Virus record (IMG/VR): IMGVR_UViG_3300023717_000163
DNA length: 64,000 nt
From: a virus
Direction: 5' to 3' (one strand)
Part shown: in pieces, positions 44,872 to 58,631 of the stretch
How the letters are laid out: each line of letters opens with the position of its first letter
Numbering within the stretch: position 1 is the first letter of the stretch
Translations under genes and position numbers: made by a program
Notes under the pieces: generated by a model
What the model saw: only the letters and a program-made list of their open reading frames with translations
Databases searched by the model: none
What the model was told of the DNA's origin: nothing

Positions 44872-45124
44872 TATTTATTTCTTTAGAGTGGCAATTTCTA
44901 TCAAGTATCTCAATGCACTGTTTAATCCCAGTATCAAATCCTTCTTTATAGTCTTTGGTATGCTCACCTAAAACATATATAGTCATTGACAGCCAAAATA
45001 GAAGTATGCCAACGGATTTATACCAGCATGGTAAAGATATAGAAAAGGGTTTTAAGGTGATAGAGAAATCACCGATCCACAGAAGACCGGCAATGAGCAT
45101 GAGTAAATATAAGACTTTCATCAT
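44849..45124 (-). CDS. Small membrane protein
   Basis: 91 aa with two or three hydrophobic helices. Confidence 0.4.
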   Translation of the reverse strand: MMKVLYLLMLIAGLLWIGDFSITLKPFSISLPCWYKSVGILLFWLSMTIYVLGEHTKDYKEGFDTGIKQCIEILDRNCHSKEINNDETVQN

Positions 45125-45611
45125 TTATCATTGTTAAGTTCAACATATTTGCCTTGTAAAGAGCAGTTCCTTAAAATTTCGGCATTTTCCCGGCCAAATG
45201 CAATAAGAACACTACCGCAACCGGGGCTGTCCCCACGTGTTCCATCGGGACGGAAGAATTTTATTCGATTTCTCAAAAACATCATACCAGTTGCTTTCGT
45301 GAAGATGATGTCTTGAAACTTATTGCTGTCACACCGGTTAAAAAGTAGTGCTATACCGTTGCCGTGTTCTGCCAATTTCTCTACAAACTGCCATATAAGC
45401 GGTTTGGAGTACGGAGGGTTAAGCCAAATTCGCCCCCCCAATTTTGTACAAGACCATTGTCCTGCTTGTTGTACATGATTTTTGCAGTAGGCCAAAGAGG
45501 GTGCATGGGAGCACATGGATCAAGGTCAAATTCACCTAATGCTTCAATGATTTCTCGTGGTGTGTACCATTCATCGGAAGCATTTGCAGATCGTTCAAAA
45601 GATGTATTCAT
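45121..45611 (-). CDS. DNA N6-adenine methyltransferase (phage Dam, DEWYTP...NPPY type), frame broken at a G7/C7 homopolymer
   Basis: The N-terminal part (45381..45611) carries DEWYTPREIIEALGEFDLDP. The C-terminal part (45121..45516) carries WLNPPYS. The frames join only if the tract at 45433-45439 has 8 rather than 7 residues. Confidence 0.7.
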
Positions 45612-45844
45612 GTATTACTTACATTTAGGATTTTACGAATTTCTATATGATCACAATTTTCATCAGCCTTTTTCAGAATATAAGCAATCTCTTCTTCCTT
45701 ACTCATGTTCTGTGGACGTTTCGTTGCTTCTGCTCTCAATTCAGAAATAATTTTATCTACTTCGGGATTAGGAGTTTCATATAATTTTTTAAGTTCAGCG
45801 GCTCTACGTTTAATAAGTCGCTCTGTCTTTTTGTTTAATTTCAT
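45608..45844 (-). CDS. Hypothetical protein
   Basis: 78-aa ORF. Confidence 0.45.
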   Translation of the reverse strand: MKLNKKTERLIKRRAAELKKLYETPNPEVDKIISELRAEATKRPQNMSKEEEIAYILKKADENCDHIEIRKILNVSNT

Positions 45845-45845
45845 C

Positions 45846-46745
45846 TTACAACATTTTAAAGTATTCCTTGCATAAAAATCCTTTTCTTGGTGAAAAGTCT
45901 TTGAAGTCGCAACTCATGTATATTTCCTTCCTATCAGCCCAATGTGCCATATCTTTCTGCCACTGTGGAATAATTTGGTGTGGATTGTTCAGATCACGAA
46001 AGGGTTGACAATGTGGAAGAAAACGGCGGCTTTTAGATTTCCAGTAGTTGACGCGCGCAAACGATTCTTTAAAGTCCATAAGGATGCAATACAAGAAATA
46101 TTCCCCTTTATATCCATACTTGTCTATTAAAGCGGAAGCACGTTCAACTTCTGCAATCTGTCCCGGTGTATCGCATCCAAAGCGAATACGTTTAATCCAT
46201 TTTACTTTTGCAAGTAGCCGAGCGATTTCATCCGTGATTAAACGGGCATCCAGTCCTTGATTAAAATCCACTTTGATACCCAGTTTGATGATTTTCTCTA
46301 TTTGCTGCAAGCCATAGTTTGAGGCCAGTATATTATTATCCATAAGGATAGCTTTTTTCCGTCCGGCTGTTATTTCCTCAATATCCATATAAGGTGAGAT
46401 TTTTCCTTCTTTTTTAGGAACAACACACCATTTACACCGATTGGGACACCCACGTGTCAGAAATCCATAGGATAAATTGGAGTCAATATTGTAGATCGAG
46501 TAATCAGGTTGAAGACGATCAACCTCAACTGGAAGAACTTTTTCAATATCATATCCGGTACCACCTTTTTCTATTTGGTTAGTATTGATATAATAGTTAT
46601 AGTCGGGTGTGAAAGTGAAAACTTTAGCTGCATATACTTTATCATATTCACATAGTGGATTATACCATTCCACTTGATCGCCTCTTGCTTTGTGGTAAGC
46701 ACTGATCTTCATAAGTGCTAAATTGGGGGGGGGAATTGCTATCAA
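45846..46745 (-). CDS. Radical SAM protein
   Basis: GCPNRCKWC (CxxxCxxC). A G9/C9 tract lies 16-24 nt upstream of the ATG at 46709, or inside the gene if the TTG at 46745 is the start. Confidence 0.55.
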   Translation of the reverse strand: MIAIPPPNLALMKISAYHKARGDQVEWYNPLCEYDKVYAAKVFTFTPDYNYYINTNQIEKGGTGYDIEKVLPVEVDRLQPDYSIYNIDSNLSYGFLTRGCPNRCKWCVVPKKEGKISPYMDIEEITAGRKKAILMDNNILASNYGLQQIEKIIKLGIKVDFNQGLDARLITDEIARLLAKVKWIKRIRFGCDTPGQIAEVERASALIDKYGYKGEYFLYCILMDFKESFARVNYWKSKSRRFLPHCQPFRDLNNPHQIIPQWQKDMAHWADRKEIYMSCDFKDFSPRKGFLCKEYFKML

Positions 46746-46766
46746 CGGCTAAAATTCCAATATTCA

Positions 46767-47114
46767 TTATTCTTCAAATTTAGGTTTTGGCATCCATGCT
46801 ATCGGTTCCCATGACGGAGGTATGCTGCTCATTGAAGAGTAAATTGGGTTACCTTTGTACGTGTCATAGATATAACCATCCATGCAGAACCATACATTGT
46901 TGCTATATGTACCGTTAAAAATCGCACCATGTTTACATAGAATGATGATGTCTTCATTTTCATCCGGTAACCGTTCTTTCACTGATACCCACGGAGGTTG
47001 TTTTGTCTGCCATCTGGCTCCTTCTTTGAATCCTATTCTAAAACAAGTTATTTTATCCCAGTCAGGATGTACGCCTCCAATTTCATTTACGGCTTCTTCT
47101 AATGTCTGTTTCAT
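46767..47114 (-). CDS. DUF551-like phage protein
   Basis: PWVSVKERLPDENEDIIILCKHG matches the DUF551 signature. Confidence 0.5.
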   Translation of the reverse strand: MKQTLEEAVNEIGGVHPDWDKITCFRIGFKEGARWQTKQPPWVSVKERLPDENEDIIILCKHGAIFNGTYSNNVWFCMDGYIYDTYKGNPIYSSMSSIPPSWEPIAWMPKPKFEE

Positions 47115-47116
47115 AT

Positions 47117-47785
47117 CTATTTATCAAATAAATTAGTTTGAACCAACCTTCCTCTCTCTGTTTTTATCTCCCCAAAACATTCCCGGTGAAAACGTTCTTC
47201 TTGTGCTTCAAAGTATTCTTCATCTATTTCAGTTGCATAGAAATCGAATCCAAGTCCATAAGCAGCTATTCTGCTGCTTCCTGAACCTAAATGACTATCA
47301 AAAATTTTGTCTCCCTCTTTGGCGTTTTTTCTTAATATTTCAGCATATAATTTCACTGGCTTCTGACAACGATGGATATTTCCACCTCGTTCTCCAATTG
47401 TACACCGGTTTAGAGTTATGATCCGAAGAGCCTTGTCAAAACTACTCCATGCCAATTCACCGTCAGACATAGTTAATCCATGTTGTCCTTTATCCCAAAC
47501 AATCCAACCCATTTTGGGAGGAAGATAGGTAGTAAAGTAGTTACCACCAAAAATTATTTGATTCTTCGATACCCTGAATAGTTCCTCAAAATATTTCTTT
47601 CCGGGGGGGGACTTATCCCAATCCTTTCTTTTATATTGTTTAAAGCCTAAATGCTTCGGCATCCCACCTTTGTGCATTATGTCTATGCCATACTGGGGAT
47701 CGACTATCGCTAAATCAAAGAACTTATCAGGAATCCCCTTCATGTATTCCATACAGTCCATGTTATATACTTCGCTTATCGGCAT
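47117..47785 (-). CDS. DNA methyltransferase, beta-class (motif IV before motif I); N6A or N4C
   Basis: DLAIVDPQY upstream of FDSHLGSGSS. An in-frame G8 tract encodes SPPGK. Confidence 0.6.
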   Translation of the reverse strand: MPISEVYNMDCMEYMKGIPDKFFDLAIVDPQYGIDIMHKGGMPKHLGFKQYKRKDWDKSPPGKKYFEELFRVSKNQIIFGGNYFTTYLPPKMGWIVWDKGQHGLTMSDGELAWSSFDKALRIITLNRCTIGERGGNIHRCQKPVKLYAEILRKNAKEGDKIFDSHLGSGSSRIAAYGLGFDFYATEIDEEYFEAQEERFHRECFGEIKTERGRLVQTNLFDK

Positions 47786-47799
47786 TATTTATATCCTTT

Positions 47800-48033
47800 C
47801 TATTCTGTTATTATTAATTTCATGTGCATTCTTGAAATCATTTTCTCTTCTTCTTTCAACTTATGATAATAATCTATAGCTTCATCTTTAGTATTGAATG
47901 TACCAACACACGAATAATGCCAAGATCCGAAAGGATCTTTGAGGATATACAAGTTGTATGAACCTAAGACCGTTTTCGCCAAATAGTAAGGATCTCGTAT
48001 CATAATGTTCATTCCATTTTTATTTACTCGCAT
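47800..48033 (-). CDS. Hypothetical protein
   Basis: 77-aa ORF. Confidence 0.4.
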   Translation of the reverse strand: MRVNKNGMNIMIRDPYYLAKTVLGSYNLYILKDPFGSWHYSCVGTFNTKDEAIDYYHKLKEEEKMISRMHMKLIITE

Positions 48034-48875
48034 AGTCCATGAAACAGACTCATGCAGGCATATCCACCTTCCGGCTCGAACATATCAGGGGTATGTTCTT
48101 TAACGTACTCCAAAACTTCCTCTACATAAGGATATTGTTTGTTTTTACAGAATCTTTGAGGTATGTATAATGGAGGAAAGAAGGAATGTCCTACGCTTTT
48201 CTCTGCTTGAATTAGGCGTTGGCACATTTTAGGATCATTTTTGGCTATGAGTTCGATTTCTTTGTGCCGACACATGATACACGGGAAACATCCAACACGT
48301 GAGAATCCACGATAATACAATGGATTCGGTTTCTGCCCTGCATCCAGTATGCAATCTATAACTTGCTGTGCACTCCATTTGAAGATAGGTCTTAGAACAG
48401 AAGCGTCATATTGGGAACACCATTCTTTGACATCCTTACTTCGGTAGTTTTCAGTTCTTCCTTTCTTATTAGGTTGAAAATACGATTTGAAGTACATACA
48501 TTCCTCTTCCATTGCCGCACGTGCTGTACTTTCTCCGGCTCTGATACCTTGTATGATAATGCAGCTTTCTTTCAAAGAAAGTACATAATCAATCATTGGC
48601 TTCATTTTTAGTTCACTGGTACAAAATCGTGCATTCGTGGAAGGAAATCTTTTCTTATGAGCTGCCAAAGACACAAAATCATATTTTGATTTGAGAGTTA
48701 TAAGTCTTACACCCATTTGCAGACAAACATCATTCACATGTTTATATGTGTCAGGGTGTTCCCAACCGGTGTCACAAAACACAGCGGTTAAATTCCCCCC
48801 CCCATATTGTTTGAAGGCTTGGATTAAACATGCTTGTGAATCCTTACCACCTGAAAAACTTACTAATATTTTCAT
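48024..48875 (-). CDS. PP-loop ATP pyrophosphatase, PAPS-reductase/QueC superfamily
   Basis: SFSGGKDS P-loop and a C-terminal GCFPC...C Cys cluster. An in-frame C9 tract encodes YGGGN. Confidence 0.6.
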   Translation of the reverse strand: MKILVSFSGGKDSQACLIQAFKQYGGGNLTAVFCDTGWEHPDTYKHVNDVCLQMGVRLITLKSKYDFVSLAAHKKRFPSTNARFCTSELKMKPMIDYVLSLKESCIIIQGIRAGESTARAAMEEECMYFKSYFQPNKKGRTENYRSKDVKEWCSQYDASVLRPIFKWSAQQVIDCILDAGQKPNPLYYRGFSRVGCFPCIMCRHKEIELIAKNDPKMCQRLIQAEKSVGHSFFPPLYIPQRFCKNKQYPYVEEVLEYVKEHTPDMFEPEGGYACMSLFHGLCE

Positions 48876-48877
48876 TT

Positions 48878-49207
48878 TTATGCCATTTCAATTTTTACAT
48901 ATTCATTTTTATTAATCCCGGCACTACCTTTGGGAGAATACACTAATCGGCCTCCATTATCCAATATCTTTTGTACATCTTTCATAGCTTGGTATGCTTG
49001 GGTATAGTCTTTGTATTCTTGGTGGCCTATTGGATATTTGCAATATCTTCTACCACCGTCAGGCATGATGCTGATACCGAATACTGTTTCATAAGTTTTT
49101 CGGTTGAAATTCTGTTGAGTCCTTACTTTCATTTTTTTTGATACATTTTCCCAGTTTAAGTATAAATACACATTCGTTATCCGGTGCTCCCCAATTGGTG
49201 TTACCAA
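48878..49207 (-). CDS. Hypothetical protein
   Basis: 109-aa ORF. Its start may be the internal ATG, since it overlaps the next gene by 119 nt. Confidence 0.35.
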   Translation of the reverse strand: MVTPIGEHRITNVYLYLNWENVSKKMKVRTQQNFNRKTYETVFGISIMPDGGRRYCKYPIGHQEYKDYTQAYQAMKDVQKILDNGGRLVYSPKGSAGINKNEYVKIEMA

Positions 49208-49505
49208 CTCCGATGGTTATAGATTCAAGTTCAAAAAGCATTGTCCGTTTGGTGTAGCCAAAACGGAAGCGAACATGAGTGTATTCTTTGGGGTGAAAGC
49301 CGTTTCCACGTGTAATACAAGAAAAACAAATAGCTTTCTTACAATAGAAACCAGTCTTTTCATAGGAATTGCGACCTCCACATTTTGCTAATCTTCCGAT
49401 CCAGTATTTCTTGATCTCTCTGTATTCTTCTTTCTTATTTCCGGATTCGATCATTTCATACCATTTTGCTTTTAATGGCAGGTCAAGGATTTTCATATTA
49501 ACCAT
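49089..49505 (-). CDS. ASCH-domain protein
   Basis: SGNKKEEYR fits the GxKxxExR ASCH signature. Confidence 0.45.
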   Translation of the reverse strand: MVNMKILDLPLKAKWYEMIESGNKKEEYREIKKYWIGRLAKCGGRNSYEKTGFYCKKAICFSCITRGNGFHPKEYTHVRFRFGYTKRTMLFELESITIGVGNTNWGAPDNECVFILKLGKCIKKNESKDSTEFQPKNL

Positions 49506-49739
49506 AGTCTAAAAGAGTTGCGGATTCTGTTTGTCGTGAAGGATTTTTTGAACACGTTCAATTTCTTCATCTACTTCACGCTCAATTTGTTTACTTATTC
49601 GTAAATCTATCTGTCTCTTATTTTTTAAATATTCTTTTTGGCAACGGCGCATTTCCACCACTTTGTCGAAAAAATCTTTTGGAGTCATAGATTTAAAAGG
49701 TATGGAAAAGGCCGCTTTGATGCGGCCTCCCCAGTGTGA

Positions 49740-50324
49740 TTACTTTTTTCCAATCAGAAAGTCTTTCCACAATTCTTTGAATTGTTCTCCAAAGTAAATT
49801 GCGATTTCACTTGATTTTACAGCAAGGCGAGAGCCGATATACGCAGACGAGGACGACCAAGCGGAAGCCGAGTTCGCAGAAGCGAGGCCGCAAAACGCAC
49901 CGAAATTCGCAGAACCGCCCCAAAGAACCAGCCGATTACGATCCTCTTCGTCCATTTCATCAATTTCTTTTTGATTATAAAGATAAAACCACGGCGTATA
50001 ACGGTATTCATCTTTAGTAAATCGTGGAAAATCAGGATCGTTGTTTAACGCACGGGCAATAGTGTATAGTTTGATGTAGGCGAGGTGTGCAATATCAGCC
50101 ACTTCTTCTTTGTGTCCGTCTTCATCTTCAACAAGTAGGCGAACAATGGGTTTTACACCTATTGCTTCACAAGCATCTTCGTAGGTTTTAATATTGTGAT
50201 AATCTGTATAATCCGGCTTTTGCTTTCCGAATAGGGCTGTTAGAATACTAATTGCTTTAGGACAGTCGTTTGCTTCACTAAAAGCGGCTGTTACCTTTTC
50301 TTGTGTGATTTTAAGTTCTGACAT
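49740..50324 (-). CDS. DGR target protein 2 (194 aa) carrying the remote variable repeat VR2
   Basis: C-terminal LVLWGGSANFGAFCGLASANSASAWSSSSAYIGSRLA. All 17 nucleotide differences from the TR fall at TR adenines. Confidence 0.6.
   Translation of the reverse strand: MSELKITQEKVTAAFSEANDCPKAISILTALFGKQKPDYTDYHNIKTYEDACEAIGVKPIVRLLVEDEDGHKEEVADIAHLAYIKLYTIARALNNDPDFPRFTKDEYRYTPWFYLYNQKEIDEMDEEDRNRLVLWGGSANFGAFCGLASANSASAWSSSSAYIGSRLAVKSSEIAIYFGEQFKELWKDFLIGKK
49826..49933 (-). repeat. DGR variable repeat VR2 (about 15 kb from the TR, on the opposite strand)
   Basis: Reverse complement aligned to the TR by hand across its full ~108-bp length. The 17 mismatches are all A-to-N. Confidence 0.65.
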
Positions 50325-50332
50325 AATGTAAA

Positions 50333-51085
50333 TTATTTATTGTTAATACTATATCCGAATAATGCAAAATCTCCCCGGCACGGATCATCCGGGAAAATTG
50401 TTTTCATGTAATTGGTTACTTGTTGAACCATTTTCCAGTCCTCTGTTTTGCGTGTTGTTATCCCAAGCTGATGTGCCATTTTTGCAACATGCGCATCCAA
50501 TGGTATGTATAATTCTGTTGGATGAATAATAGTCCAAATACCTAAATCCACCGGCGATTTTCGTACTACCCACCGTAGAAACAGACAAATACGCTTGCAT
50601 GGAGAATCACGCTCCAATTTTGGAATACCTTTTACGCCACCAAAATCTGTTTGTATTTCACGGATAACATTGTTGTAACCCTCATAAAATACTTCCAAAT
50701 CATCCCATTCCTGATATATGTTGTACAACCGCTGGCAAATGCAGAAGAAGTCATGGTAGGTGAACATACGGTAGAAGGTATTTGTATTTTCTTTGTATTG
50801 TTCCCATACTTTGTTCATAATGAAGTCATAAGGAGAATTACCCATTAGATTATCCAAAATTTCTGCTTGCTGCATTATCAGTTTGCGATTCCCGAAAGCT
50901 ATCCATGAAGTAAGAAAGGCACTGATTTCTATGTCCTTTTTATCACTGTACTTATGTGGGAAGAATATAGGATCATCTTTTATAAAATCAGGTGTTTCAA
51001 ATTGTTTTGCCCAGTCAAGTAGTTTGTTTCTTAGTTCTTCCATAATATTCTTCTTTCCATTTTTTGAAAGCGGCTTCTTTATCAT
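50333..51085 (-). CDS. HhH-GPD superfamily-like protein (DNA glycosylase fold)
   Basis: IPLDAHVAKMAHQLGI resembles the vDTHvfRv.nRlgl helix-hairpin-helix motif of Nth/MutY-type enzymes. Confidence 0.4.
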   Translation of the reverse strand: MIKKPLSKNGKKNIMEELRNKLLDWAKQFETPDFIKDDPIFFPHKYSDKKDIEISAFLTSWIAFGNRKLIMQQAEILDNLMGNSPYDFIMNKVWEQYKENTNTFYRMFTYHDFFCICQRLYNIYQEWDDLEVFYEGYNNVIREIQTDFGGVKGIPKLERDSPCKRICLFLRWVVRKSPVDLGIWTIIHPTELYIPLDAHVAKMAHQLGITTRKTEDWKMVQQVTNYMKTIFPDDPCRGDFALFGYSINNK

Positions 51086-51698
51086 TTGATTTCATCCTTT
51101 GTATGAATGATTGATGGGATTCCAATAATTCTTTGGCCTCTTCATCTCCATTTTCCGATCTTTCAGTTAGATGTTTGATATATTCTCCGTAGAACATTCC
51201 AGTGCTGTTATTATTTTGTTCATGGGCTTCATTAATTGAAAGAGAAGAAACAATTTCATCACGCTGTACATCGTATTCATTTAACCAGCCGAGAATGATA
51301 TTACCGTCCAGTCTATCGTAAATCTTACCGGAAGCCATAGCATTACGGAAACACAATTTGATTTCCTCCAATTTGAGATAATAGAATCTGTCTATTATTA
51401 GATCAGCGGTAAGTGCCACTTGAACATCATTCATCGTTTTTCCAACATTGAAAAAAGACACAAGCTCGTTAATCGCAATTACCAGTATGGCTCTTGCGCC
51501 AGCCAATGTGATTTCTTTTCTTATAACGGAGAGTGGTAGGTTAGGAGTGTTGAGAACAGCTTCTTTAATCGAACTTACGTGCAATCCCTTGTAATACTCC
51601 GCTTGCAAGGTCAGCAAGTCTTTCAACGCTTTCTTTTCGGTTGCCGGGAGATTGCTGTTGACTTGAATTAAGTTGTTTCCCATACTTGTTAAAATCAT
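51015..51698 (-). CDS. Hypothetical protein
   Basis: 227-aa ORF. The likely start is the internal ATG (MGNNLIQ), given a 134-nt overlap with the upstream ORF. Confidence 0.4.
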   Translation of the reverse strand: MILTSMGNNLIQVNSNLPATEKKALKDLLTLQAEYYKGLHVSSIKEAVLNTPNLPLSVIRKEITLAGARAILVIAINELVSFFNVGKTMNDVQVALTADLIIDRFYYLKLEEIKLCFRNAMASGKIYDRLDGNIILGWLNEYDVQRDEIVSSLSINEAHEQNNNSTGMFYGEYIKHLTERSENGDEEAKELLESHQSFIQRMKSNDKEAAFKKWKEEYYGRTKKQTT

Positions 51699-51984
51699 TA
51701 TTAGACCATCTGACTAAACGTTTGGAAACTTCAAATGTACGTTCCTTCTCAAAGCGCATTTTCCGGCCTCCGCATTCAGTCCAATACTCAAAAAAGTCCT
51801 TCAACATATCATCAGGATATTTTCCTCTATACATGAGGACTTCACTTCTGAATTTGTCTTTCCTTGCAGAAAGAGAATCCTTATTCATATTCATCTTATG
51901 GCCTAATCCGGCCATGAATGCTTGTTCCAATGTTGCATCGGGATGATCCCGACACCATTGGGCTGCTAATTCTTCTGATTTCAT
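51565..51984 (-). CDS. Hypothetical protein
   Basis: 139-aa ORF. Its C-terminal ~45 aa overlap the next gene in another frame. Confidence 0.4.
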   Translation of the reverse strand: MKSEELAAQWCRDHPDATLEQAFMAGLGHKMNMNKDSLSARKDKFRSEVLMYRGKYPDDMLKDFFEYWTECGGRKMRFEKERTFEVSKRLVRWSNNDFNKYGKQLNSSQQQSPGNRKESVERLADLASGVLQGIARKFD

Positions 51985-51989
51985 TTGAT

Positions 51990-53095
51990 TTATAATTTAG
52001 ATAACCAATATTTCCATACTCGTGAGGCTACTTGTGCCATCATAACGGGTGGTACACTCATTCCACAGATATAATGTGGGGATTGGTTGAGGAAATGATA
52101 ATCTTGTGGAAATGTGGATATATTACATACTTCTGACCGTGATAAATATATAGGCTGCTTAAAAGGAATAATTGAGTCTGCATGAGTTGTTAGGGTGTAG
52201 CTTACTTTGTTCTCATATAGATATTGTTGATTAAAAAAGCCTCGTTTTCCAGTTTGTTTCTTATAGGCCTCTGCCAAAGCAATATCTCCTGCCACTCTCT
52301 GCTCAAATAACTTTCTCATTTTTACGCCAATAGGCTTTCCCTTGTAATCCGCATATTCCCCATAATATATTTCCGATTCATTAAATTCCATGTCGATGTA
52401 TGGCTCAACATTGAAGAGGTCTGAAACTTTTAGGAAATGGGCTCCCAAATCATGTCTGATACATATAAAGAATACACGTTCTCTTTTTTGAGGTACTCCC
52501 ATTTTAGAAGCATCAAGAAGAAAATGCTGACAGTAATAACCAGCTTCCTCAAAGCCTTTGTATATACGTCTGACATAATCAATCGCATTCCCTAAAAGAA
52601 GTCCTTTTACATTTTCAGCAATAACGACTTTAGGTTTTAAGCGTTTGGCAAGTGCAATAAAATCAAAAAAGAGCGTGTCTAAAACTTGTGTCTTTTGACC
52701 TTCCTTGAATTTCTTTTCTTTACCCCACGCATCTTCACGTAATCCCGACATGCTAAATGTACTGCAAGGTGGTGATCCGTCCAATATATCTAAATTGTAC
52801 AGTTCTTCGGGAAGATTATTCCTTTTCACTAAATCACGAATATCTTCCAAATAACTATACTGGGGATGATGGTTTGTTTCATAGCATTTCATCATTCGTG
52901 GATCAATCTCATTACAGCCAATAACATCGTAACCTGCTATTTTGTAACCCATAGTAGAGCCACCGCCACATGCAAAACAAGAAAATACCTTTCCCTTATC
53001 TTTAGTAAAAACAGCATCTTCTAAAGACCAGCGATAAGGATAGAGATGTTGTGTATGGGGGGGGTAATTACATCTTTCATCATTCCACCTCCCAT
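51990..53095 (-). CDS. DNA cytosine-5 methyltransferase whose N-terminus (motif I) is out of frame at a G8 tract
   Basis: PPCSTFSMSG and ENVKGLL lie in the annotated ORF. Motif I FSCFACGGG is upstream of the annotated ATG, in frame but with no start codon. The ATGs at about 53084-53095 join this frame only if the G8 tract (53057-53064) becomes G9. Confidence 0.7.
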
Positions 53096-53616
53096 AATTC
53101 AGCTACTCTTTTGAACTCTTCATCAGCTGGAACCGGGCAATCTTTGATCCATTGCATATCTTTTACTTTCCATAACGAAAGGTCTGTGTTGTCAGGAATA
53201 TGCTTTTTAATATCAGGAAAAAGATTGAGCCGAAGAGATTTACTTTCCATAAGTTCATCTTTGTAATCCAACAAAAAATTATTGGCCTCCAATAAACTAT
53301 GAACATCATTAACAGAATGTGGAGTGTAAACAACTCCATCGAAGTATCTGATATAATTGGGGAGCATATCAGCCAGTGCCGTATATAGAAATAATTTTCC
53401 TTTATTTCCATAGGCCAATTTTTGAACGGTTTTGATACTTTCAGCCAAATTTGCCAGTTTTTCAGGAAACAAAAGTGGTTCTCCACCAGTTATCATGATC
53501 TCTTTGTAATTAAAGTGCTCAACAACTGGTAATTTTGAAAAATCCCATGAGTTGTTGCAACACATAGGACATTTGTTCGGACATTTGGTTGTAACCAATA
53601 GACGTAACTTTTCCAT
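53080..53616 (-). CDS. Radical SAM protein, QueE/PflA-activase-like
   Basis: N-terminal CPNKCPMC (CxxxCxxC) and MITGGEPLL. Confidence 0.5.
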   Translation of the reverse strand: MEKLRLLVTTKCPNKCPMCCNNSWDFSKLPVVEHFNYKEIMITGGEPLLFPEKLANLAESIKTVQKLAYGNKGKLFLYTALADMLPNYIRYFDGVVYTPHSVNDVHSLLEANNFLLDYKDELMESKSLRLNLFPDIKKHIPDNTDLSLWKVKDMQWIKDCPVPADEEFKRVAELWEVE

Positions 53617-53892
53617 TTATAATGATATTGTTTGGGTGTATTTCAATTCTCCGGTATATCCACGTGCTTTCAATTCTGCGATAAGTTCCCGTGGAGAAAA
53701 TTTTGCCAATTCAGGATTGGAATATATTTTCTTCAAATTCCCCCCCCCCGGAGTTTTCTTACGGTTTCTGGCATAAACATTACCGCACTCTTTACAATAT
53801 GTCTGCAATCCATCTTCGGTTGAAGCATTTTTCCAAAACTCACTGACCGGAAGTTCCCGGCCACATTTGCTACATTTTTTTAATTTTTCCAT
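53617..53892 (-). CDS. Zinc-ribbon protein
   Basis: CSKCGRE...CKECGN. An in-frame C10 tract encodes PGGGN. Confidence 0.45.
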   Translation of the reverse strand: MEKLKKCSKCGRELPVSEFWKNASTEDGLQTYCKECGNVYARNRKKTPGGGNLKKIYSNPELAKFSPRELIAELKARGYTGELKYTQTISL

Positions 53893-54347
53893 TATTCCTT
53901 TTCTTTAATTCTACCATATTCACATATTAGTAAGGCATCCGAAGTTGCCAATGTAACTTTTGCATACGGGAACAGCTGTTGGGCTTTCTTCTTTAAGATG
54001 TTTTTCCATTCTGTCTTACCCAATTTGTCTGTATTTCGTAATCCTATAGTTTTTTGCCAAGTTTGTGGAGATACTGTTACTGTCGGAATCCCACAAGCTA
54101 TCAATCCCATAGTCAGCTGTCCGTAACTTTCTCCAAAAACAAAAGAGGCAGAAGCACTTTGTCCGGTCATGCCATTCACTCGTTCCAAATAACAAACGCT
54201 ATTTTCTTTGTATATGGAGAGAAAATCTAATAAGTCTTTGGGAGTTGGTGGCATTTTGATACACTCCAATAATTTGTTATTCTCGGTGTCGTACACTACA
54301 ATACCACCGTTTTTGCCAACATCTATACCTATGATCCTTCGTTTCAT
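53892..54347 (-). CDS. RuvC-like Holliday junction resolvase
   Basis: IIGIDVGKNGGIVVYD at the N-terminus and TSDALLICEYG near the C-terminus, matching the RuvC fold. Confidence 0.55.
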   Translation of the reverse strand: MKRRIIGIDVGKNGGIVVYDTENNKLLECIKMPPTPKDLLDFLSIYKENSVCYLERVNGMTGQSASASFVFGESYGQLTMGLIACGIPTVTVSPQTWQKTIGLRNTDKLGKTEWKNILKKKAQQLFPYAKVTLATSDALLICEYGRIKEKE

Positions 54348-54350
54348 AAA

Positions 54351-54518
54351 TTATACTTTTTTGTTTATAAATCTTTTGAGCTTAATTACATCTTTCTTTC
54401 CAAGCCTTAGTGCTTCACTGGTCTTGATGTCAGAAGGTGAAGCTTTACAATTCTCGGTTATCCTTTCAAAATGTCGGATAAAGGATTTTAGGAAATAGTC
54501 GGGAATTTCAACTTTCAT
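54351..54518 (-). CDS. Small hypothetical protein (ATG-initiated part of the track ORF)
   Basis: MKVEIPDYFLKSF... The track ORF's TTG-initiated extension covers the tRNA-like T-arm. Confidence 0.3.
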   Translation of the reverse strand: MKVEIPDYFLKSFIRHFERITENCKASPSDIKTSEALRLGKKDVIKLKRFINKKV

Positions 54519-54532
54519 AATGATTGATTTAT

Positions 54533-54697
54533 GAGAATAAGCCCGGACTCGAACCGGGAACTGTTGCAATCAGGATTTTCGTTTCTGCTTCCGTTTGTAC
54601 GTATGTCAAGTGTTAATAGCATGATTACCTGACTCGTGATGCTATTCGTGCATTTTTACCACAGAAACTAAGCGTCTTCCAATTCCGCCACTTATTC
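54533..54697 (-). other. tRNA-like RNA element with a 7-bp acceptor-like pairing and a canonical T-arm, about 165 nt long
   Basis: On the minus strand: 5' GAATAAG...U8...GG...cccggTTCGAGTccggg-CTTATTC-t. The T-stem is a perfect 5 bp. No canonical anticodon arm could be placed. Confidence 0.3.
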
Positions 54698-55096
54698 GTT
54701 TGCCTCCACAATAGAGGCATTCTTATATGAACAAAAAGACTCTTTGTAGTATCTACCGCCGTGGAGCGTATGCAGCGTACTCGGCTCGACTTGCAAAGAG
54801 AAGAAAAAAGGTGAGGCATGATAGTTCCCGGATAGGCGGCCAAGCCACACCGGGAGAAGCTGATTATTAATCGGGTTAATGATTATTGTTTTAAGAATTT
54901 AGCAAAAGTCTTGATTGAGCTTTCATTATTACTTTTTAAAGAGGCCAATTCTGTATTTTTAGAAGTTAGCGTAGAAATAACAGATTTATTCTTTTCGATT
55001 TCTGTATCAATATCACTATTAAGTGTTTCCAAATCGGCTTTTGCTTGTGTAAATTGAGACAATATTGTATCTCTTCTTTGTTGAAATGTCGGTATA

Positions 55097-55888
55097 CTAT
55101 TTTGTTATTTTTAGAAATTCAGGAGCAATACCATACAAAGGGCTTGTTCCATCCCATTTGTCAATGAACTGTTTATATAATATTTCTTTTGTCAGACCTC
55201 TTGACTGAATTAGAGCCTGCTCGGTTTTTAACTGTTCCAGTTCATTGCGCTTCTTCTGTTCCTCAATTTGTTGATCCAACACGGAGATATTGGTATTCAC
55301 TTCATTTCTACTATCAATTTTTTCGCGAACTTTATCGGAGAACTCCAACTGGGCAGAGAATGTGAGTAATTGCAGACCTCTTTTTTCAAACTCTTTGTCA
55401 ACTATCTGTTCCAATCGTTTCTCAAACACTAATGAACCTCCATCAGCCATTAAACTGTCAGTCTTATGTTTCCGACTTTCCTCTTTTATCAAATCATATA
55501 TACGTGGCTCCAAAATGTTATCTTCTAACGAAGACATGAAATCACTTCCACGGCCAATATGCTTGTTGTCAAAGACAACATCAATGGCACGGTTCTTGAT
55601 AACTTTATAGCTATATGTGGGACGTGCCTTGAACTCTGTATTATCGGCTGCTTTCAGTGTGACAGCTTCGGCAAATTCTCCACGCTGATCGAATAGCGGA
55701 ACTTGAAAAAGCTCTGTGCCTAATTCCCATGTAGATACCTTACCGGAAACGATTTTAAAATCTTCTTTTCCTTGTTTGCCGTAGTTCTCCATAAGGACAC
55801 CGGCATAATTGGGAGCAACTCTTTCGCATGAAGCAAACAAAACAACGGCAAATAATGCCACAATCAAAAAATCAATCTTTCTTTTCAT
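55097..55888 (-). CDS. Lipoprotein with coiled-coil regions
   Basis: Signal and lipobox (LFAVVLFASC); 263 aa. Confidence 0.5.
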   Translation of the reverse strand: MKRKIDFLIVALFAVVLFASCERVAPNYAGVLMENYGKQGKEDFKIVSGKVSTWELGTELFQVPLFDQRGEFAEAVTLKAADNTEFKARPTYSYKVIKNRAIDVVFDNKHIGRGSDFMSSLEDNILEPRIYDLIKEESRKHKTDSLMADGGSLVFEKRLEQIVDKEFEKRGLQLLTFSAQLEFSDKVREKIDSRNEVNTNISVLDQQIEEQKKRNELEQLKTEQALIQSRGLTKEILYKQFIDKWDGTSPLYGIAPEFLKITK

Positions 55889-56045
55889 TTTCTACTTTTT
55901 TAATGATATTATAAACTATAAATGCTACAGTCAGCATGATTATTGAAATTCCAAGCCACGCATTTATGTGATTGAATACGCGGTTGCCAATGAAGAAAGC
56001 CGATACGACAAGTACCGGCTTCCAGTATTTCTTTACAGACTTCAT
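55866..56045 (-). CDS. Small membrane protein (59 aa)
   Basis: Translated by hand (MKSVKKYWKPVLVVSAFFIGN...), with two hydrophobic helices. Overlaps both neighbours. Confidence 0.3.
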
Positions 56046-56047
56046 TG

Positions 56048-56791
56048 TTATTGTTCGATAATGGCAATATCCGGTGCCAATTTACGAATTAACAACAATT
56101 GCTCGTCAATGGCCTTATTACGCTCTTCTTCCACTATTACTTCTGCACCGGGAGAGCAAAGGGATAATCGAATGTTACGCCCATCCACATCTGCAATGAT
56201 TTCCACTTCAATTTCTTCTGCCGGGCGACCTTTGAAAATCGGAACAATAAGATTGAATGAGGCCGGAAGATTGGAGTTGACAACTTGGCTGTAATTGTCA
56301 GTGCGACTACCGTTGTCTTGTCGGGAGTTTTCCACTTTTGAGTCAATGCTGGCTTTGAAGTTCTTCAAGACTGTTACCAGTTCCATGTTGTATTGTGCAT
56401 CCTTGAAGAAGGCACGATTCATTTTGAAGAACTTTGAAAGCTGCACCGGTTCCCATGTCTTGCTTGTGTTAATACCAAATTCAAGAAACTTGGGATAGTA
56501 TTTCAACTCACCTCTTACAGTAGCTTTATTCCTACTGTCAGTTTCATTGGTGACAAGTTTAAGTGTCATTTTCTCCCGATCAACAAGAATATAGCAACGT
56601 TTCTGATTGATCTGCTCTTTTTCAGAGATTCTTTTCAAGAGAAATTCATGAACACTTCCAATTGTTCCGGCTAATTCTACCTTATCAGGCTCCAGTACCG
56701 GTAACTCATTTTCTTCGTGAAGTTCAATAACTCTAAGGGTTGCTTCGGTCATACCCGGAGCAAAGTTCACTTGCATCTTTTCGTTTCCCAT
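56048..56791 (-). CDS. Hypothetical protein
   Basis: 247-aa ORF. Confidence 0.5.
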   Translation of the reverse strand: MGNEKMQVNFAPGMTEATLRVIELHEENELPVLEPDKVELAGTIGSVHEFLLKRISEKEQINQKRCYILVDREKMTLKLVTNETDSRNKATVRGELKYYPKFLEFGINTSKTWEPVQLSKFFKMNRAFFKDAQYNMELVTVLKNFKASIDSKVENSRQDNGSRTDNYSQVVNSNLPASFNLIVPIFKGRPAEEIEVEIIADVDGRNIRLSLCSPGAEVIVEEERNKAIDEQLLLIRKLAPDIAIIEQ

Positions 56792-56797
56792 GCTGTT

Positions 56798-57076
56798 CTA
56801 CAAATTTTTAGTTCTGTTTTTAAATGATTTGGCAGGTTTGAAATGTGGAGTATAATGCTCCGCTATGACAATAGTCTCGTTTTTGTGTATGTTACGAGCA
56901 ACTTTTCGTTTATAGTGTTTGGGTGACAGTGTGCCAAAACCTCTGATATAAAGAGTCTTTCCATTAGCTACTGCATCCACGGTCTCTTTCAGTGCTGCCT
57001 CTATGACAGTTCGGACTTCACAAATAGCGATACCGGTTGATTCGGCTACTTGCTTGATAAGTTCTTCTTTCCTCAT
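56798..57076 (-). CDS. HU/IHF-family DNA-binding protein
   Basis: RGFGTLSPKHYKRKVARNIHKNETIVIAEHYTPHFKPAK matches the HU arm region. Confidence 0.7.
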   Translation of the reverse strand: MRKEELIKQVAESTGIAICEVRTVIEAALKETVDAVANGKTLYIRGFGTLSPKHYKRKVARNIHKNETIVIAEHYTPHFKPAKSFKNRTKNL

Positions 57077-57079
57077 AGC

Positions 57080-57508
57080 TTATCCCTCCGTACCAGTAGA
57101 TTCCATGTCCTCGAAGACTGTTTTCTGCATCTCTTGTGCTTCCATCGGACGTTCTTTAACCAAGTCACCATTACCATTGTAATATCCGGTAGTACGGGTG
57201 CTACGTTCCATGAACTTAAAGCATTCATCCGTAATTTCCTCATAACCACGCTTTATATCGGTAAGCAACGTTTTTTTACGCTCTTTTTTAGGTTTCATCT
57301 TGTCTTTGTATGCCTGCATGAAAGCTTTCTTTTCTTCTTCCAGTGCGGCCATATCAAGATCAATATTTGCCAACTCCGTTTTCCGTTCACCCATTTCTTC
57401 CTCACTGAAAGGAGAGGTATAGGTGATTCTTTCAACTGCTGCGCAATTGTCTTCCAACATTTGTCTGCGAAGCAATGGATTCTTGTCTTTAAATAGTTCT
57501 TTATCCAT
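57080..57508 (-). CDS. Hypothetical protein
   Basis: 142-aa ORF. Confidence 0.5.
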   Translation of the reverse strand: MDKELFKDKNPLLRRQMLEDNCAAVERITYTSPFSEEEMGERKTELANIDLDMAALEEEKKAFMQAYKDKMKPKKERKKTLLTDIKRGYEEITDECFKFMERSTRTTGYYNGNGDLVKERPMEAQEMQKTVFEDMESTGTEG

Positions 57509-57509
57509 A

Positions 57510-57812
57510 TCATAACGGTTTTAAGCCATATCGGGCAGAACCGACAAATGGCTGTGGGTTAGTCCTTATGTTTGCTTTGTGTATATCATCTGTACGATGA
57601 TTGAATAATCGGGGTAATCCCGTTATTTTGTCATATACAACCAGTTCAGACGATACATAACAAATAAAGCCTTTCAGTCGCTCTTTCAACCATGCGTTCT
57701 GATAGGCTCTGCGTTCACGATACTCTTGGTAGCTCATTCCTTTGGGACGAGCTGTGAGAAGGGGAGTGTAATTTCTCGCCCCCCCCGATTTAGATTTACT
57801 CTTTCCCATCAA
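57510..57812 (-). CDS. Hypothetical basic protein
   Basis: 100-aa ORF. An in-frame G8 tract encodes SKSGGARN. Confidence 0.45.
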   Translation of the reverse strand: MMGKSKSKSGGARNYTPLLTARPKGMSYQEYRERRAYQNAWLKERLKGFICYVSSELVVYDKITGLPRLFNHRTDDIHKANIRTNPQPFVGSARYGLKPL

Positions 57813-58410
57813 TCAAATTTTTATATTGTTTTTCTGAAACGAACTTGTCGCAGTTCTTATACCAAGTGCCATCATTTATTTTGTATGGGTTGCTCGTTTC
57901 ATCCACTTCATTCATAATACCGACTACCGCATTTTCTTTGTTGTTATCATCCCATACGATAACAATATCGCCGACAGTCGGGATATATTCAGGCTGTAAC
58001 TTCTCAAAATTGAAGGAGTAATGTTTTTCTTCCTTCATGGCGGCAAGCATCTTTGCCTTTTCCTCTTCTGTAGCTTTACGGAATCCCTTCATGCCTCCGA
58101 TACCAGCTTCGGGTGTGAGTTTTACAAAAACTCTGTCACCTTCATCGTTGGAAGGAACATAAGCGACAAGGCCGAAAGGTACTTTTATTGCTGGTAAAAA
58201 AGGAAGCGGCCTTTCTTCTCTAATTTCAGAGAGAATCATCATGCTGCCCCCTCCGCGATTTGGATTGATAATTACGTCACCGGGGATGAATGTCTCACCT
58301 TCAAACTCAAATTTACCCCCCCCCATAACTTTTTGGGTAGATTGCATACTTTCTTCTTTCACGATTTTTACCATGTGTCCTTCGGGCACTTCAACTGTTA
58401 CTGTTCTCAT
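57796..58410 (-). CDS. Hypothetical protein
   Basis: 204-aa ORF. An in-frame G9 tract encodes MGGGK. Confidence 0.5.
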   Translation of the reverse strand: MRTVTVEVPEGHMVKIVKEESMQSTQKVMGGGKFEFEGETFIPGDVIINPNRGGGSMMILSEIREERPLPFLPAIKVPFGLVAYVPSNDEGDRVFVKLTPEAGIGGMKGFRKATEEEKAKMLAAMKEEKHYSFNFEKLQPEYIPTVGDIVIVWDDNNKENAVVGIMNEVDETSNPYKINDGTWYKNCDKFVSEKQYKNLIDGKE

Positions 58411-58631
58411 TTTAATTTGATTTTAAACTGGTTATTGTATTCTATGTATTTTTTCGGGCAGGTTGTTTCTATAATTCCGTTCATTGTAGGAATACGAAAC
58501 AACTTGCCGGATTTATGAAGCTCTTTTTCAAGCTGTTTTGCTTTATGTAAAGCAGCCAAAGAACGTGTTTCATTTTCGATCAGTTCTTTAGCCGCTGTGA
58601 TACTGTTACTAATTTTTTCACATGAATCCAT
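58407..58631 (-). CDS. Hypothetical protein
   Basis: 74-aa ORF. Confidence 0.4.
   Translation of the reverse strand: MDSCEKISNSITAAKELIENETRSLAALHKAKQLEKELHKSGKLFRIPTMNGIIETTCPKKYIEYNNQFKIKLK

Follow-up and report, generated by a model that had tools for sequence, protein, structure and literature searches.

The locus raises the question why eight long homopolymeric G/C tracts should be crowded into 13 kb of coding sequence of a Bacteroidales prophage. In the window, i.e., the whole stretch of 64,000 nt analyzed here, exactly eight G/C homopolymers of at least 7 nt were found, all within positions 45433-58324 (C7, G9, G8, C9, G8, C10, C8, and C9 on the window strand, in this order). The other ~50 kb contain none, the longest runs there being three 6-mers. 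Under a first-order Markov background with the tracts masked, 0.39 runs of at least 7 nt are expected in the region 45000-58500 against 8 observed (P=8.5e-9), and 0.083 runs of at least 8 nt against 7 observed (P=5e-12). For the other 50.5 kb, 2.4 runs of at least 7 nt are expected and 0 were observed. An earlier note had described both the cluster and the otherwise tract-free window, and the census confirms both, with the start of the third tract corrected from 47602 to 47603. The same note had asked for an equal tract density elsewhere as a counter-indication. No comparable tract was found in the 23.6 kb of host DNA or the remaining prophage of the window, and the only such tract in the other 38 kb of the closest complete phage is one G8. 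In a whole-genome census of MW660583 and BI-TP1, all G/C runs of at least 7 nt except one G8 were located in the early accessory module, and the structural genes of both phages carry none.

The prophage occupies positions 23635-64000 of the window and matches LoVEphage, BI-TP1, and PV4-TP1 at 96-99%. LoVEphage was the most often detected inducible temperate phage in a human gut virome survey, being present in ~8% of 1,241 viromes, and has been induced from three host species of two genera, Bacteroides and Phocaeicola. All tract-bearing genes are early genes on the minus strand of this prophage. Each of the eight tracts lies inside an ORF, seven of them within the first 36% of the gene (P=0.004), and a length change that is not a multiple of three leads to a stop after 1-22 codons. 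The tracts are composed of rare codons, as GGG accounts for 10% of the glycine codons and CCC for 20% of the proline codons outside them. Frameshifts in the window are confined to the tracts, and the remaining ORFs have the lengths of the BI-TP1 CDS. Three genes are out of frame (OFF) in this genome, encoding a Dam-type methyltransferase (MTase), a C5 MTase, and a radical SAM protein, while the tracts starting at 47603, 48795, 53740, 57779, and 58316 are in frame (ON). The earlier count of two broken MTase frames thus stands, but five instead of six tracts are in frame, since the one at 46725 had been taken as such due to a TTG-initiated ORF that reads through it.

Three of the tracts are located in MTase genes, and in each of them a length-polymorphic tract sets the frame. 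The Dam-type N6-adenine MTase (45121..45611, minus strand; PF05869, phrog_111) is split into two frames at a coding-strand G7 (45433..45439) around codon 58. A G8 would restore the reading ...NWGGRIWLNPPYS, and the protein has 163 amino acids when in frame; the whole 492-nt CDS is present in OY731444. Relatives carry G6 (1), G7 (6), G8 (16), or G9 (6). The N6/N4 DNA MTase gene (47117..47785, minus strand; PF01555, 222 amino acids) is ON, with a coding-strand C8 (47603..47610) in codons 59-61 (S-P-P). Its relatives carry C7 (3), C8 (8), C9 (10), C10 (2), or a tract-free allele (4). In the tract-free allele of BI-TP1, K-P-P is encoded as AAA CCA CCT, i.e., the same Pro-Pro in mixed codons, which makes it a 'locked ON' allele. 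The C5 cytosine MTase gene (51990..53083, minus strand; PF00145, E=2.8e-44) is OFF due to a coding-strand C8 (53057..53064) in codons 7-9 after ATGATG. A C9 would restore MMKDVITPPHTQHLYPYRW..., and with C9 a CDS of 1107 nt is known. The lengths in relatives are C7 (1), C8 (22), C9 (18), C10 (5), and C11 (1). The catalytic motifs of the MTases are intact in the ON readings, among them FACGGG, SPPCS, ENV, and QKRER in the C9 reading of the C5 enzyme; motif IV of the N6/N4 enzyme is a non-canonical DPQY.

The radical SAM protein gene (45846..46767, minus strand; phrog_9298, E=3.6e-121; 305 amino acids in relatives) has a coding-strand C9 in codons 12-14 (46725..46733), which is out of frame with the ATG at 46767; C8 would restore the frame. 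This tract looks newly expanded, since all relatives have C4-C5 at this site, among them two independent +1 C events. A PP-loop ATP-pyrophosphatase gene (48024..48875, minus strand; PF01507, 283 amino acids) of the PAPS-reductase/SspD/DndC-like type is ON. Its PADLOC matches were SspD (1e-22), BrxP (9e-17), and DndC (2e-7), and a coding-strand G9 (48795..48803) forms codons 25-27 (GGG) directly after the SGGKDS PP-loop. Pooled unbiased relatives showed G7 (1), G8 (8), G9 (7), G10 (12), G11 (2), and G12 (2), so that 9 of 32 are ON. Exact copies of the in-frame protein are indexed in over 9,500 blocks of the public assembly collection.

The function of the remaining three tract-bearing genes, all on the minus strand and ON, could not be assigned. 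A 91-residue Zn-ribbon protein (53617..53892) with weak PHROGs matches to endonuclease VII, HNH, and Lar-like restriction alleviation proteins has a coding-strand G10 in codons 48-51 (53740..53749). Relatives carry G7-G12 as well as an interrupted GGGAG8-10 allele, and 16 of 46 are ON. A 99-residue ORF (57510..57809), for which family searches gave no match, contains a G8 in codons 8-10 (57779..57786; in relatives G7 4, G8 20, G9 5, G11 3, G12 1). Finally, a 204-residue ORF (57796..58410) with only weak NUMOD3/DUF5839 matches contains a G9 in codons 29-31 (58316..58324; in relatives G7 1, G8 3, G9 22, G10 7).

The comparison set consisted of 51 related genomes and contigs with 95-99% identity, namely six GenBank LoVEphage-type genomes and ~45 metagenomic, MAG, or isolate loci. 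As the earlier note had wished to see examined, these relatives keep the tracts at the same codons. The length varies at every site, and all frame classes occur at seven sites, with ON fractions of 21-70% at these seven; some consensus lengths stem from long-read-only assemblies and may be wrong by 1 nt. Among 25 genomes typed at six or more sites, 23 different ON/OFF patterns were found. Of 36 groups whose 2x100-nt flanks are identical, 27 differ in tract length. Within single flank haplotypes, some tracts exceed the ON length and others fall short of it, in keeping with both gain and loss of units. Repeat number thus changes faster between close relatives than point substitutions accumulate, and it toggles the frame. 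The earlier view of the tracts as slipped-strand substrates in a Bacteroidales prophage is supported by these same-codon tracts and by lengths spread over three frame classes. As an indirect look at variation within populations, contig ends were counted near the tracts, where they showed no significant clustering (3 of 40, 1.8 expected).

Some sequencing platforms often miscount homopolymers, no platform is given for the window and several of the records, and most differences amount to +/-1 nt. The tracts could hence be real and their length differences and frame breaks mere miscalls from sequencing or assembly, an artefact that the earlier note had also considered. The behavior of other runs in the same assemblies makes this very improbable: where the 40-nt flanks match exactly, G/C runs of at least 8 nt differ in 24 of 40 comparisons, whereas G/C runs of 5-6 nt differ in 0 of 27, A/T runs of 5-7 nt in 1 of 838, and A/T runs of 8 nt in 1 of 11. 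Two near-identical pairs from separate, independent assemblies (L002/L003 and L027/L028) have the same length at every site. Moreover, the differences reach 4-5 nt (C5 vs. C9 in the radical SAM gene, G7-G12 in the PP-loop gene and the 99-residue ORF), and the same spread is seen in GenBank phage isolates, IMG/VR, ENA metagenome scaffolds, and NCBI chromosomes.

Long homopolymers are sites of RNA polymerase slippage, which is established for A/T runs of at least 9 nt. Polymerase slippage or ribosomal frameshifting might therefore restore the frame, the tracts then tuning dosage instead of acting as DNA switches. Out-of-frame consensus states are indeed common, and a nearby A8 at 49132 resembles a classical slippery site joining two ORFs. 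However, programmed sites usually keep one length and an out-of-frame arrangement, whereas here all three frame classes occur, in-frame alleles are frequent, and the OFF frames soon stop. Assignment as a programmed frameshift or transcriptional slippage site was rejected on these grounds. Recoding may add some leakiness, but it leaves the polymorphism at the DNA level unexplained and is very unlikely as the main function. A target of a diversity-generating retroelement (DGR) was rejected as well, as the tracts have no template copy and vary in length and not at adenines; the DGR of the phage targets the tail-fibre gene at 34139-34256.

More weight has to be given to the view that the tracts are tolerated mutational hot spots of no adaptive value, reflecting relaxed selection or incipient pseudogenisation of dispensable accessory genes. 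Three genes are OFF in most of the consensus assemblies, ON being found in 28% (PP-loop), 34% (C5), and 35% (Zn-ribbon). The tracts occur only in accessory genes and in no essential structural or replication gene, for which purifying selection alone would suffice, and the radical SAM tract is a new acquisition of this genome that disables the gene. In addition, tract conservation within the LoVE-type clade is shallow, since all genomes are 95-98% identical. Neutral decay, however, would not build rare-codon runs of 8-12 nt at eight genes where 0.08 are expected. Under such decay, substitutions would also wipe the tracts out, but only a minority of the alleles are interrupted or tract-free. Every site retains in-frame alleles, the genes are broken at the tracts only, and the 5′ bias speaks against it too. 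Finally, tracts are also present in homologous MTases of Prevotella-type phages, which are unrelated and share only ~570 nt with the LoVE type at 68% identity. In their C5 MTase, motif I (FACGGGS) contains a run of G7-G9, either ON or OFF, and the N6/N4 MTase homologue of a Prevotella prophage (51% amino acid identity) has a C8 at the same WDK-x-PP codons. By their sequences, the tracts in these other phages may be of independent or ancient origin. Taken together, we regard the hot-spot view as rather unlikely.

The tracts share the hallmarks of slipped-strand contingency loci, as they lie within CDS, are longer and commoner than base composition predicts, and show frame-toggling polymorphism among relatives. 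We therefore consider it probable, at about three in four, that they are hypermutable homopolymeric contingency loci of the early accessory module, whose switching by slippage is kept as bet-hedging. Slipped-strand mispairing during replication would add or remove one or more G:C pairs and, because the tract lies in the 5′ part of the CDS, bring the gene sequence behind it into frame or out of it. The three MTases, the PP-loop enzyme, the radical SAM protein, the Zn-ribbon protein, and the two further proteins would thereby be switched ON and OFF independently and heritably, and the progeny of one lineage could carry DNA-modification and anti-restriction functions in many combinations. From the sequence comparison we infer that slippage would be reversible and occur at a high rate within a population, and that its maintenance would reflect bet-hedging. 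Methylation might guard the phage against classical restriction in some hosts and, in others, be costly or make it susceptible to modification-dependent (Type IV) enzymes. This trade-off is suggested by analogy with agt of phage T2 and by what is known of Type IV restriction, and its dependence on the host would fit the fact that LoVEphage lysogenises several Bacteroides and Phocaeicola species. The gene classes, with three MTases, an SspD/DndC-like enzyme, and a Lar/HNH-like protein, are likewise compatible with bet-hedging against host defence.

On the coding strand, AATTT follows within 2 nt after five of the eight tracts (background 0.0077, P=1.5e-9), a flank shared by only 6 of the region's 158 G/C runs of at least 3 nt. 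In the radical SAM gene, the C4-C5 run at the AATT(T)-Cn-AATTT site gained bases at least three independent times, i.e., by two +1 events on different haplotypes and by the step from C5 to C9 in the window, unlike other short runs, which are nearly invariant. Beyond passive slippage, tract birth and instability might be promoted by this specific context: an activity encoded by phage or host, e.g., nicking or pausing at AATT-flanked G/C runs, could seed and drive new contingency loci. This is a speculative and decidedly unlikely extension. If true, it would place a targeted homopolymer-expansion system alongside the phage DGR.

If the modification genes switch stochastically, one prophage could yield virions in up to 2^8 modification states, which would probably serve to meet different host defences. 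The methylomes of Bacteroides are extremely diverse, and this would be a simple way across the diverse restriction and methylation landscape of the Bacteroides fragilis group, complementing the DGR diversification of the tail fibre. In practice, automated annotation splits or truncates the tract genes differently in every deposited genome, and methylome studies of lysogens may show strain-specific motifs that hinge on one base pair. Inducible isolates for a direct test exist (BI-TP1, PV4-TP1, and the Nature 2025 collection).

The mechanism itself is already known and has precedents in phages; for LoVEphage and for phage methyltransferases, a literature search returned no earlier report of such tracts. 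In Bacteroides, switching is known, in the accounts available, chiefly from invertible promoters and not from simple repeats. The polyG tracts of Campylobacter phages reportedly lie in receptor-binding and tail genes of strictly lytic phages, whose host is said to use polyG tracts as well. These hypermutable tracts of Fletchervirus (Sorensen et al., 2021, Cell Rep 35:109214, as cited in PMC12823448) are, as here, G homopolymers in phage CDS whose length shifts the frame, and they result in phenotypically mixed phage populations. In the temperate Bacteroidales phage, however, DNA-modification and early accessory genes are affected, and the tail fibre is varied by the separate DGR.

The A-runs of T2 agt and T4 rIIA were described as contingency loci, with agt toggling trading sensitivity to TgvAB against that to McrA/BC (Type IV), which was termed bet-hedging (Gomez, Barrick and Waters, bioRxiv 10.1101/2025.10.21.683753). 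In the agt case, as in the present one, a gene for DNA modification in a phage contains a simple repeat that toggles it by frameshift. The T-even runs, though, are short (6-9 nt) and about as dense as the composition of an AT-rich genome predicts, and their mutants were measured at frequencies of ~1e-4 to 1e-3, whereas here sequence comparison reveals eight G/C runs of 7-10 nt (0.4 expected) in one module with three MTases, polymorphic even between consensus genomes.

Phasevarions, as outlined for Type III mod and Type I hsd genes of Haemophilus, Neisseria, Helicobacter, and Moraxella (PMC6902483; PMC7394358), also rely on MTases switched by repeat length, so that methylation differs genome-wide between siblings. 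They comprise chromosomal R-M genes, often with tetra- or pentanucleotide repeats, and are defined by a downstream regulon. The MTases of the prophage would be phase-variable in a similar manner, but are not mod or hsdM of a chromosomal Type III or I system. They were not classed as a phasevarion because they are orphan phage enzymes of a presumed early lytic operon, with no restriction partner gene in their neighborhood.

A likeness in tract form is offered by the polyG/C genes of Campylobacter jejuni and Helicobacter pylori, as summarized in PMC539331. These accessory genes carry G/C runs of ~8-12 nt in their 5′ parts, which are commoner than base composition would predict and polymorphic in length from strain to strain. 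Those tracts belong to chromosomal surface-structure and R-M genes of organisms without full mismatch repair, whereas the tracts described here are carried by a virus of a mismatch-repair-proficient phylum, next to host DNA that is itself tract-free in the window.

G/C homopolymers of at least 7 nt occur exactly eight times in the 64-kb window, as shown by a complete census. On the plus strand these are C7 (45433-39), G9 (46725-33), G8 (47603-10), C9 (48795-803), G8 (53057-64), C10 (53740-49), C8 (57779-86) and C9 (58316-24), designated T1 to T8; an earlier note made from the sequence alone had listed the same runs, with a 1-nt slip at the third (47602). Expected run counts were calculated analytically with a first-order Markov background, which was estimated with the tracts masked. 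In the 13.5-kb stretch carrying the tracts, 8 runs of at least 7 nt were observed vs. 0.39 expected (P=8.5e-9), and 7 runs of at least 8 nt vs. 0.083 expected (P=5e-12). The remaining 50.5 kb contain none of at least 7 nt vs. 2.4 expected, as the note had stated for the other ~50 kb; the longest G/C runs there are three 6-mers.

All eight tracts are located in a leftward, minus-strand early module, with the RecT/exonuclease VIII genes on one side of them and RtcB on the other. Its genes were assigned using Pfam, PHROGs, PADLOC and NCBIfam. T1 lies in a gene for a Dam-type m6A methyltransferase (MTase), T2 in one for a radical SAM protein (phrog_9298), T3 in one for an N6/N4 MTase, T4 in one for a PAPS-reductase-fold PP-loop protein (nearest to SspD, BrxP, and DndC) and T5 in one for a C5 cytosine MTase. 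The T6 gene encodes a 91-aa Zn-ribbon protein matching endonuclease VII, HNH, and Lar-like restriction-alleviation PHROGs. T7 and T8 are located in genes for a 99-aa and a 204-aa protein without functional assignment; neither has significant matches in PHROGs, PADLOC or NCBIfam, and Pfam yielded none for the former and only sub-threshold NUMOD3/DUF5839 for the latter. The tract-free neighbors are housekeeping-type early genes, namely RecT, Exo VIII, HU, a Holliday-junction resolvase, DUF2303 and a band-7 protein. The gene order downstream of a divergent repressor/Cro-like switch (61.6-63.7 kb) suggests a putative early lytic expression of the module.

The region from 23635 to 64000 matches Bacteroides phage LoVEphage (MW660583 and three OY records), Bacteroides phage BI-TP1 and Phocaeicola phage PV4-TP1 with 96-99.8% identity, and positions 1-23634 are host chromosome without a phage match. 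The similarity to LoVEphage begins abruptly at ~23635, the prophage/host junction, and the 23.6 kb of host DNA contain no G/C run longer than 6 nt. LoVEphage, a temperate phage of 71 kb, was first described in 2021 (PMC8525569). A later report named it as the inducible temperate phage detected most often in gut viromes and described its induction from B. thetaiotaomicron, P. dorei, and P. vulgatus (PMC12629997). In whole-genome censuses of MW660583 and BI-TP1, 30 kb of genes for structure, packaging and replication were free of G/C runs of at least 7 nt, and one extra G8 was found outside the module. This G8 (position 9440 of MW660583.1 and 38800 of PQ571265.1, outside the window) is the sole other G/C run of at least 7 nt in complete LoVEphage-type genomes and lies among poorly annotated small ORFs, with a primase/helicase gene on one side and replication-module genes on the other.

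A tRNA-like match of 164 nt (54534-54697, minus strand) was found in a 750-nt ORF-free gap between the resolvase and band-7 genes. It covers the Rfam tRNA model end to end with 26.8 bits (gathering threshold 29), implying a tRNA gene with an insertion of ~90 nt. MW660583 is annotated with a two-piece 'tRNA-His' at this site, and ARAGORN predicted zero tRNAs in the whole window. An RtcB RNA ligase is also encoded by the phage (43394-44665, minus strand).

Read on the coding strand, T1 to T8 are G7, C9, C8, G9, C8, G10, G8, and G9, at fractional gene positions of 0.36, 0.04, 0.27, 0.09, 0.03, 0.53, 0.08, and 0.14, so that seven of the eight lie within the first 36% of their gene (P=0.004). T3, T4, T6, T7, and T8 are in frame in the window, and the Dam (T1), radical SAM (T2) and C5 MTase (T5) genes are out of frame. 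The two broken methyltransferase frames claimed before are thereby upheld; the in-frame tracts number five and not six, since the radical SAM gene had been missed as a third broken gene. In the Dam gene, DEWYTP...NWGG and RIWLNPPYS are encoded in successive frames; G8 would join both, leaving the catalytic motif NPPYS intact. In the C5 MTase gene, the ATG(ATG) does not share the frame of the sequence from motif I onward, upstream of which no alternative start codon exists; C9 would join them, and the catalytic motifs FACGGG, SPPCS, ENV and QKRER are intact in this reading. In the radical SAM gene, the ATG (46767) and the body lie in different frames, which C8 would join; the only in-frame start is a TTG, without the first nine residues. 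The N6/N4 MTase carries an unusual DPQY where DPPY is expected. Tracts apart, the ORFs equal the annotated genes of BI-TP1 in length, which shows that the prophage is not generally decayed.

Outside the tracts, GGG accounts for 10% of the glycine codons and CCC for 20% of the proline codons of the module, which makes strings like GGG-GGG-GGG or CCC-CCC improbable codon choices. The N6/N4 MTase allele of BI-TP1 is that of the window except for a patch of ~130 nt, where ...DWDK-K-P-P-G-K... is encoded by AAA CCA CCT GGC and the window has TCC CCC CCC GG. Based on this mixed-codon allele, the run belongs to the DNA and not to the protein, and a form locked ON, i.e., in frame with its start, occurs naturally.

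Tract lengths were compared in six GenBank genomes, ~30 IMG/VR contigs, four loci from LoVE-type (LoVEphage-related) genomes or MAGs, one of them the isolate B. acidifaciens DSM 15896, and ten assemblies chosen by the exact PP-loop protein, two of which are multi-megabase and chromosome-scale (AP025240.1 and JANUTS010000001.1). Only 2 further contigs were obtained by directly scanning IMG/VR for the T1 pattern. The earlier note had proposed checking whether related prophages keep the tracts at the same codons; they do, and the lengths vary. T1 is G6 in 1, G7 in 6, G8 (ON) in 16 and G9 in 6 loci (16/29 ON). T3 is C7 in 3, C8 (ON) in 8, C9 in 10 and C10 in 2, with 4 tract-free (12/27 ON). T4 ranges over G7 (1), G8 (8), G9 (7), G10 (12), G11 (2), and G12 (2), G9 and G12 being ON (9/32), and T5 over C7 (1), C8 (22), C9 (18), C10 (5), and C11 (1), with C9 as the ON length (16/47). 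T6 occurs as G7-G12 and as an interrupted allele, its ON length varying with the flanking allele (16/46 ON). The 99-aa ORF has G7 in 4, G8 in 20, G9 in 5, G11 in 3 and G12 in 1 (ON at G8 and G11, 23/33), and the 204-aa ORF G7 in 1, G8 in 3, G9 (ON) in 22 and G10 in 7 (22/33 ON).

At least six sites could be typed in 25 genomes, and these genomes showed 23 distinct ON/OFF patterns. The only repeated ones belong to two near-identical pairs from separate assemblies (loci L002/L003 and L027/L028), which are concordant at every site. More than one length occurs in 27 of the 36 groups sharing exactly identical 100-nt flanks on both sides, often both below and above the in-frame length. As a matched control, all homopolymers of at least 5 nt in 44.6-60 kb were compared, requiring exact 40-nt flanks. 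Lengths differed in 24 of 40 comparisons for G/C runs of at least 8 nt, in 0 of 27 for G/C runs of 5-6, in 1 of 838 for A/T runs of 5-7 and in 1 of 11 for the single A/T run of 8. The tracts mutate faster than their surroundings, which is the signature of hypermutable repeats. That sequencing or assembly produced the differences is very improbable, as it is contradicted by this control, by the concordant assembly pairs and by differences of up to 4-5 nt. Contig ends, a proxy for within-sample heterogeneity, fell within 130 nt of a tract in 3 of 40 cases vs. 1.8 expected (P=0.26).

A further run at 49132-49139 (eight T on the plus strand, A8 on the coding strand) lies in the overlap of an ASCH-domain ORF (49089-49505, minus strand) with the ORF at 48878-49207 (minus strand). 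A7 or A10 yields a fused protein of 208-209 aa, A8, as in the window, 138 aa and A9 125 aa; in relatives, A7 was found in 5, A8 in 17 and A9 in 2, and the gene call in one assembly (L096) is a fused 191 aa. The run represents a ninth contingency site or, alternatively, a programmed slippery site.

T2 is C9 in the window only. In all relatives it is C4-C5, and C4 in most (AATTTCCCCAATTT). BI-TP1 has C5 through a T>C substitution, and TTT+C5, a +1 frameshift, occurs on two different flanking haplotypes (loci L001, L016, and L091 compared). Bases have been gained at T2 at least three times independently, while other short runs are invariant. T2 has the appearance of a nascent contingency locus, with an instability that is unusual at such a small run length. 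On the coding strand, AATTT follows five of the eight tracts within 2 nt (45421-45432, 46713-46724, 48783-48794, 53728-53739, and 58304-58315; background probability 0.0077, P=1.5e-9) and is found at only 6 of the 158 G/C runs of at least 3 nt in the region. From this flank and the gains at T2, a context-dependent process that seeds tracts could be proposed, albeit with low probability. AATTT as a hidden out-of-frame stop (followed by AA, AG or GA to give ATT-TAA, ATT-TAG or ATT-TGA) was rejected; a stop within 3 codons was found in only 4 of 16 OFF frames, the same as the null rate of 0.27. An AATT...AATT hairpin around the tracts is by inspection possible at T1 and T2 only and is thus not general.

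All LoVE-type genomes are 95-98% identical in DNA, and tract conservation inside this clade is therefore shallow. Lineages of '80% identity' were rejected as evidence for deep conservation, since they are 95-98% identical DNA with a swapped MTase segment and not independent. This segment of the C5 MTase (52163-52377, ~215 nt), over which the blastn alignment is lost, pulls the whole-protein identity down to ~80%. It probably represents a target-recognition domain that was exchanged, in which case the phase-variable enzyme would also come in different specificities.

A stronger argument for selection comes from unrelated Prevotella-type phages (IMG/VR loci L030, L032, L033, L054, L058, and L064 and the Prevotella MAG L082), which have only ~570 nt of the C5 MTase in common with 68% identity. 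Their C5 MTase carries a G7-G9 run within motif I (FAC-GGG-S); three of these runs are in frame and four are not, and L030 and L064 differ by G8 vs. G7 with identical flanks. In LoVEphage, motif I is encoded by GGC GGT GGC, and the run lies at codons 7-9 instead. An N6/N4 MTase of a Prevotella prophage, with 51% protein identity and no blastn similarity to the window at E<=1e-10, has a C8 run at the WDK-x-PP codons of T3. No comparable runs were found in homologs from Flavobacterium and Neisseriaceae genomes and ~30 environmental phage contigs. Neutral decay of dispensable genes, which would agree with the OFF-majority states, is unlikely, as it leaves unexplained how runs of rare codons came about in eight genes, why they are biased to the 5′ part, why in-frame alleles persist and why other phages have these parallel tracts.

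L082, L030, and L064 represent a different prophage group with only MTase genes in common and several G/C runs within 20 kb (2283, 9987, and 11940 in L082; 9987 and 11907 in L030/L064). These are G10 in a 115-aa ORF, G7-G8 in motif I of the C5 MTase, and C8 in the N6/N4 MTase of L082 or a proline-rich ORF of L030/L064. This suggests that the G/C-run strategy is spread more widely among Bacteroidales phages.

The tracts are non-random and 5′-proximal and consist of rare codons. Their length, which sets the frame, is hypervariable. G/C homopolymers of at least 8 nt are known to undergo reversible slipped-strand change. Slipped-strand mispairing in replication would lead to reversible length changes and to independent stochastic switching of three MTases, a possible phosphorothioation-type enzyme, a radical SAM enzyme and a Lar/HNH-like protein. 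Progeny would then emerge in many DNA-modification states, which may hedge between hosts in which modification blocks restriction and those in which it has a cost or draws modification-dependent nucleases. RNA-level or ribosomal recoding may contribute leakiness; as a full explanation it is improbable, since it cannot account for DNA polymorphism over all frames.

The same prophage has its tail-fiber gene diversified by a diversity-generating retroelement (34139-34256, 34426-34543, and 34819-35634, plus strand). The 118-nt variable repeat is located at the 3′ end of a tail-collar fiber ORF (32983-34302), and the template repeat, located 287 nt downstream, has A at 16 of 18 mismatches. The repeats are followed by a reverse-transcriptase ORF (RVT_1, E=1.7e-4, below the cut-off of Pfam). 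The prophage would possess two mutators, the retroelement for adsorption and the tracts for evasion of defense after entry.

The mechanism of the LoVEphage tracts is probably that of a classical contingency locus. Phase-variable MTases are well known in bacteria as phasevarions, which have an R-M mod/hsd context and a regulon. The LoVEphage MTases, however, have neither an R-M mod/hsd context nor a known regulon and therefore fall outside this family. The phylum of the hosts is not known for repeat-mediated switching. The case stands out by the number of loci, the three MTase classes hit at once, its occurrence in this phylum and the prevalence of the phage. No earlier account of the tracts was found in the searched LoVEphage, Bacteroides methylome and phase-variation literature; they are unmentioned in the LoVEphage description (PMC8525569), the Nature 2025 temperate-phage paper (PMC12629997), the Bacteroides 'roving methyltransferases' paper and a gut epigenetic phase-variation preprint. 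Precedents for phage contingency loci are the polyG tracts of Campylobacter phages (2021, as cited in PMC12823448) and the A-runs of T-even phages (2025 preprint, bioRxiv 10.1101/2025.10.21.683753). The nearest experimental precedent is the agt A-run of phage T2, in which frameshifts trade off sensitivity to TgvAB against that to McrA/BC (bioRxiv 10.1101/2025.10.21.683753).
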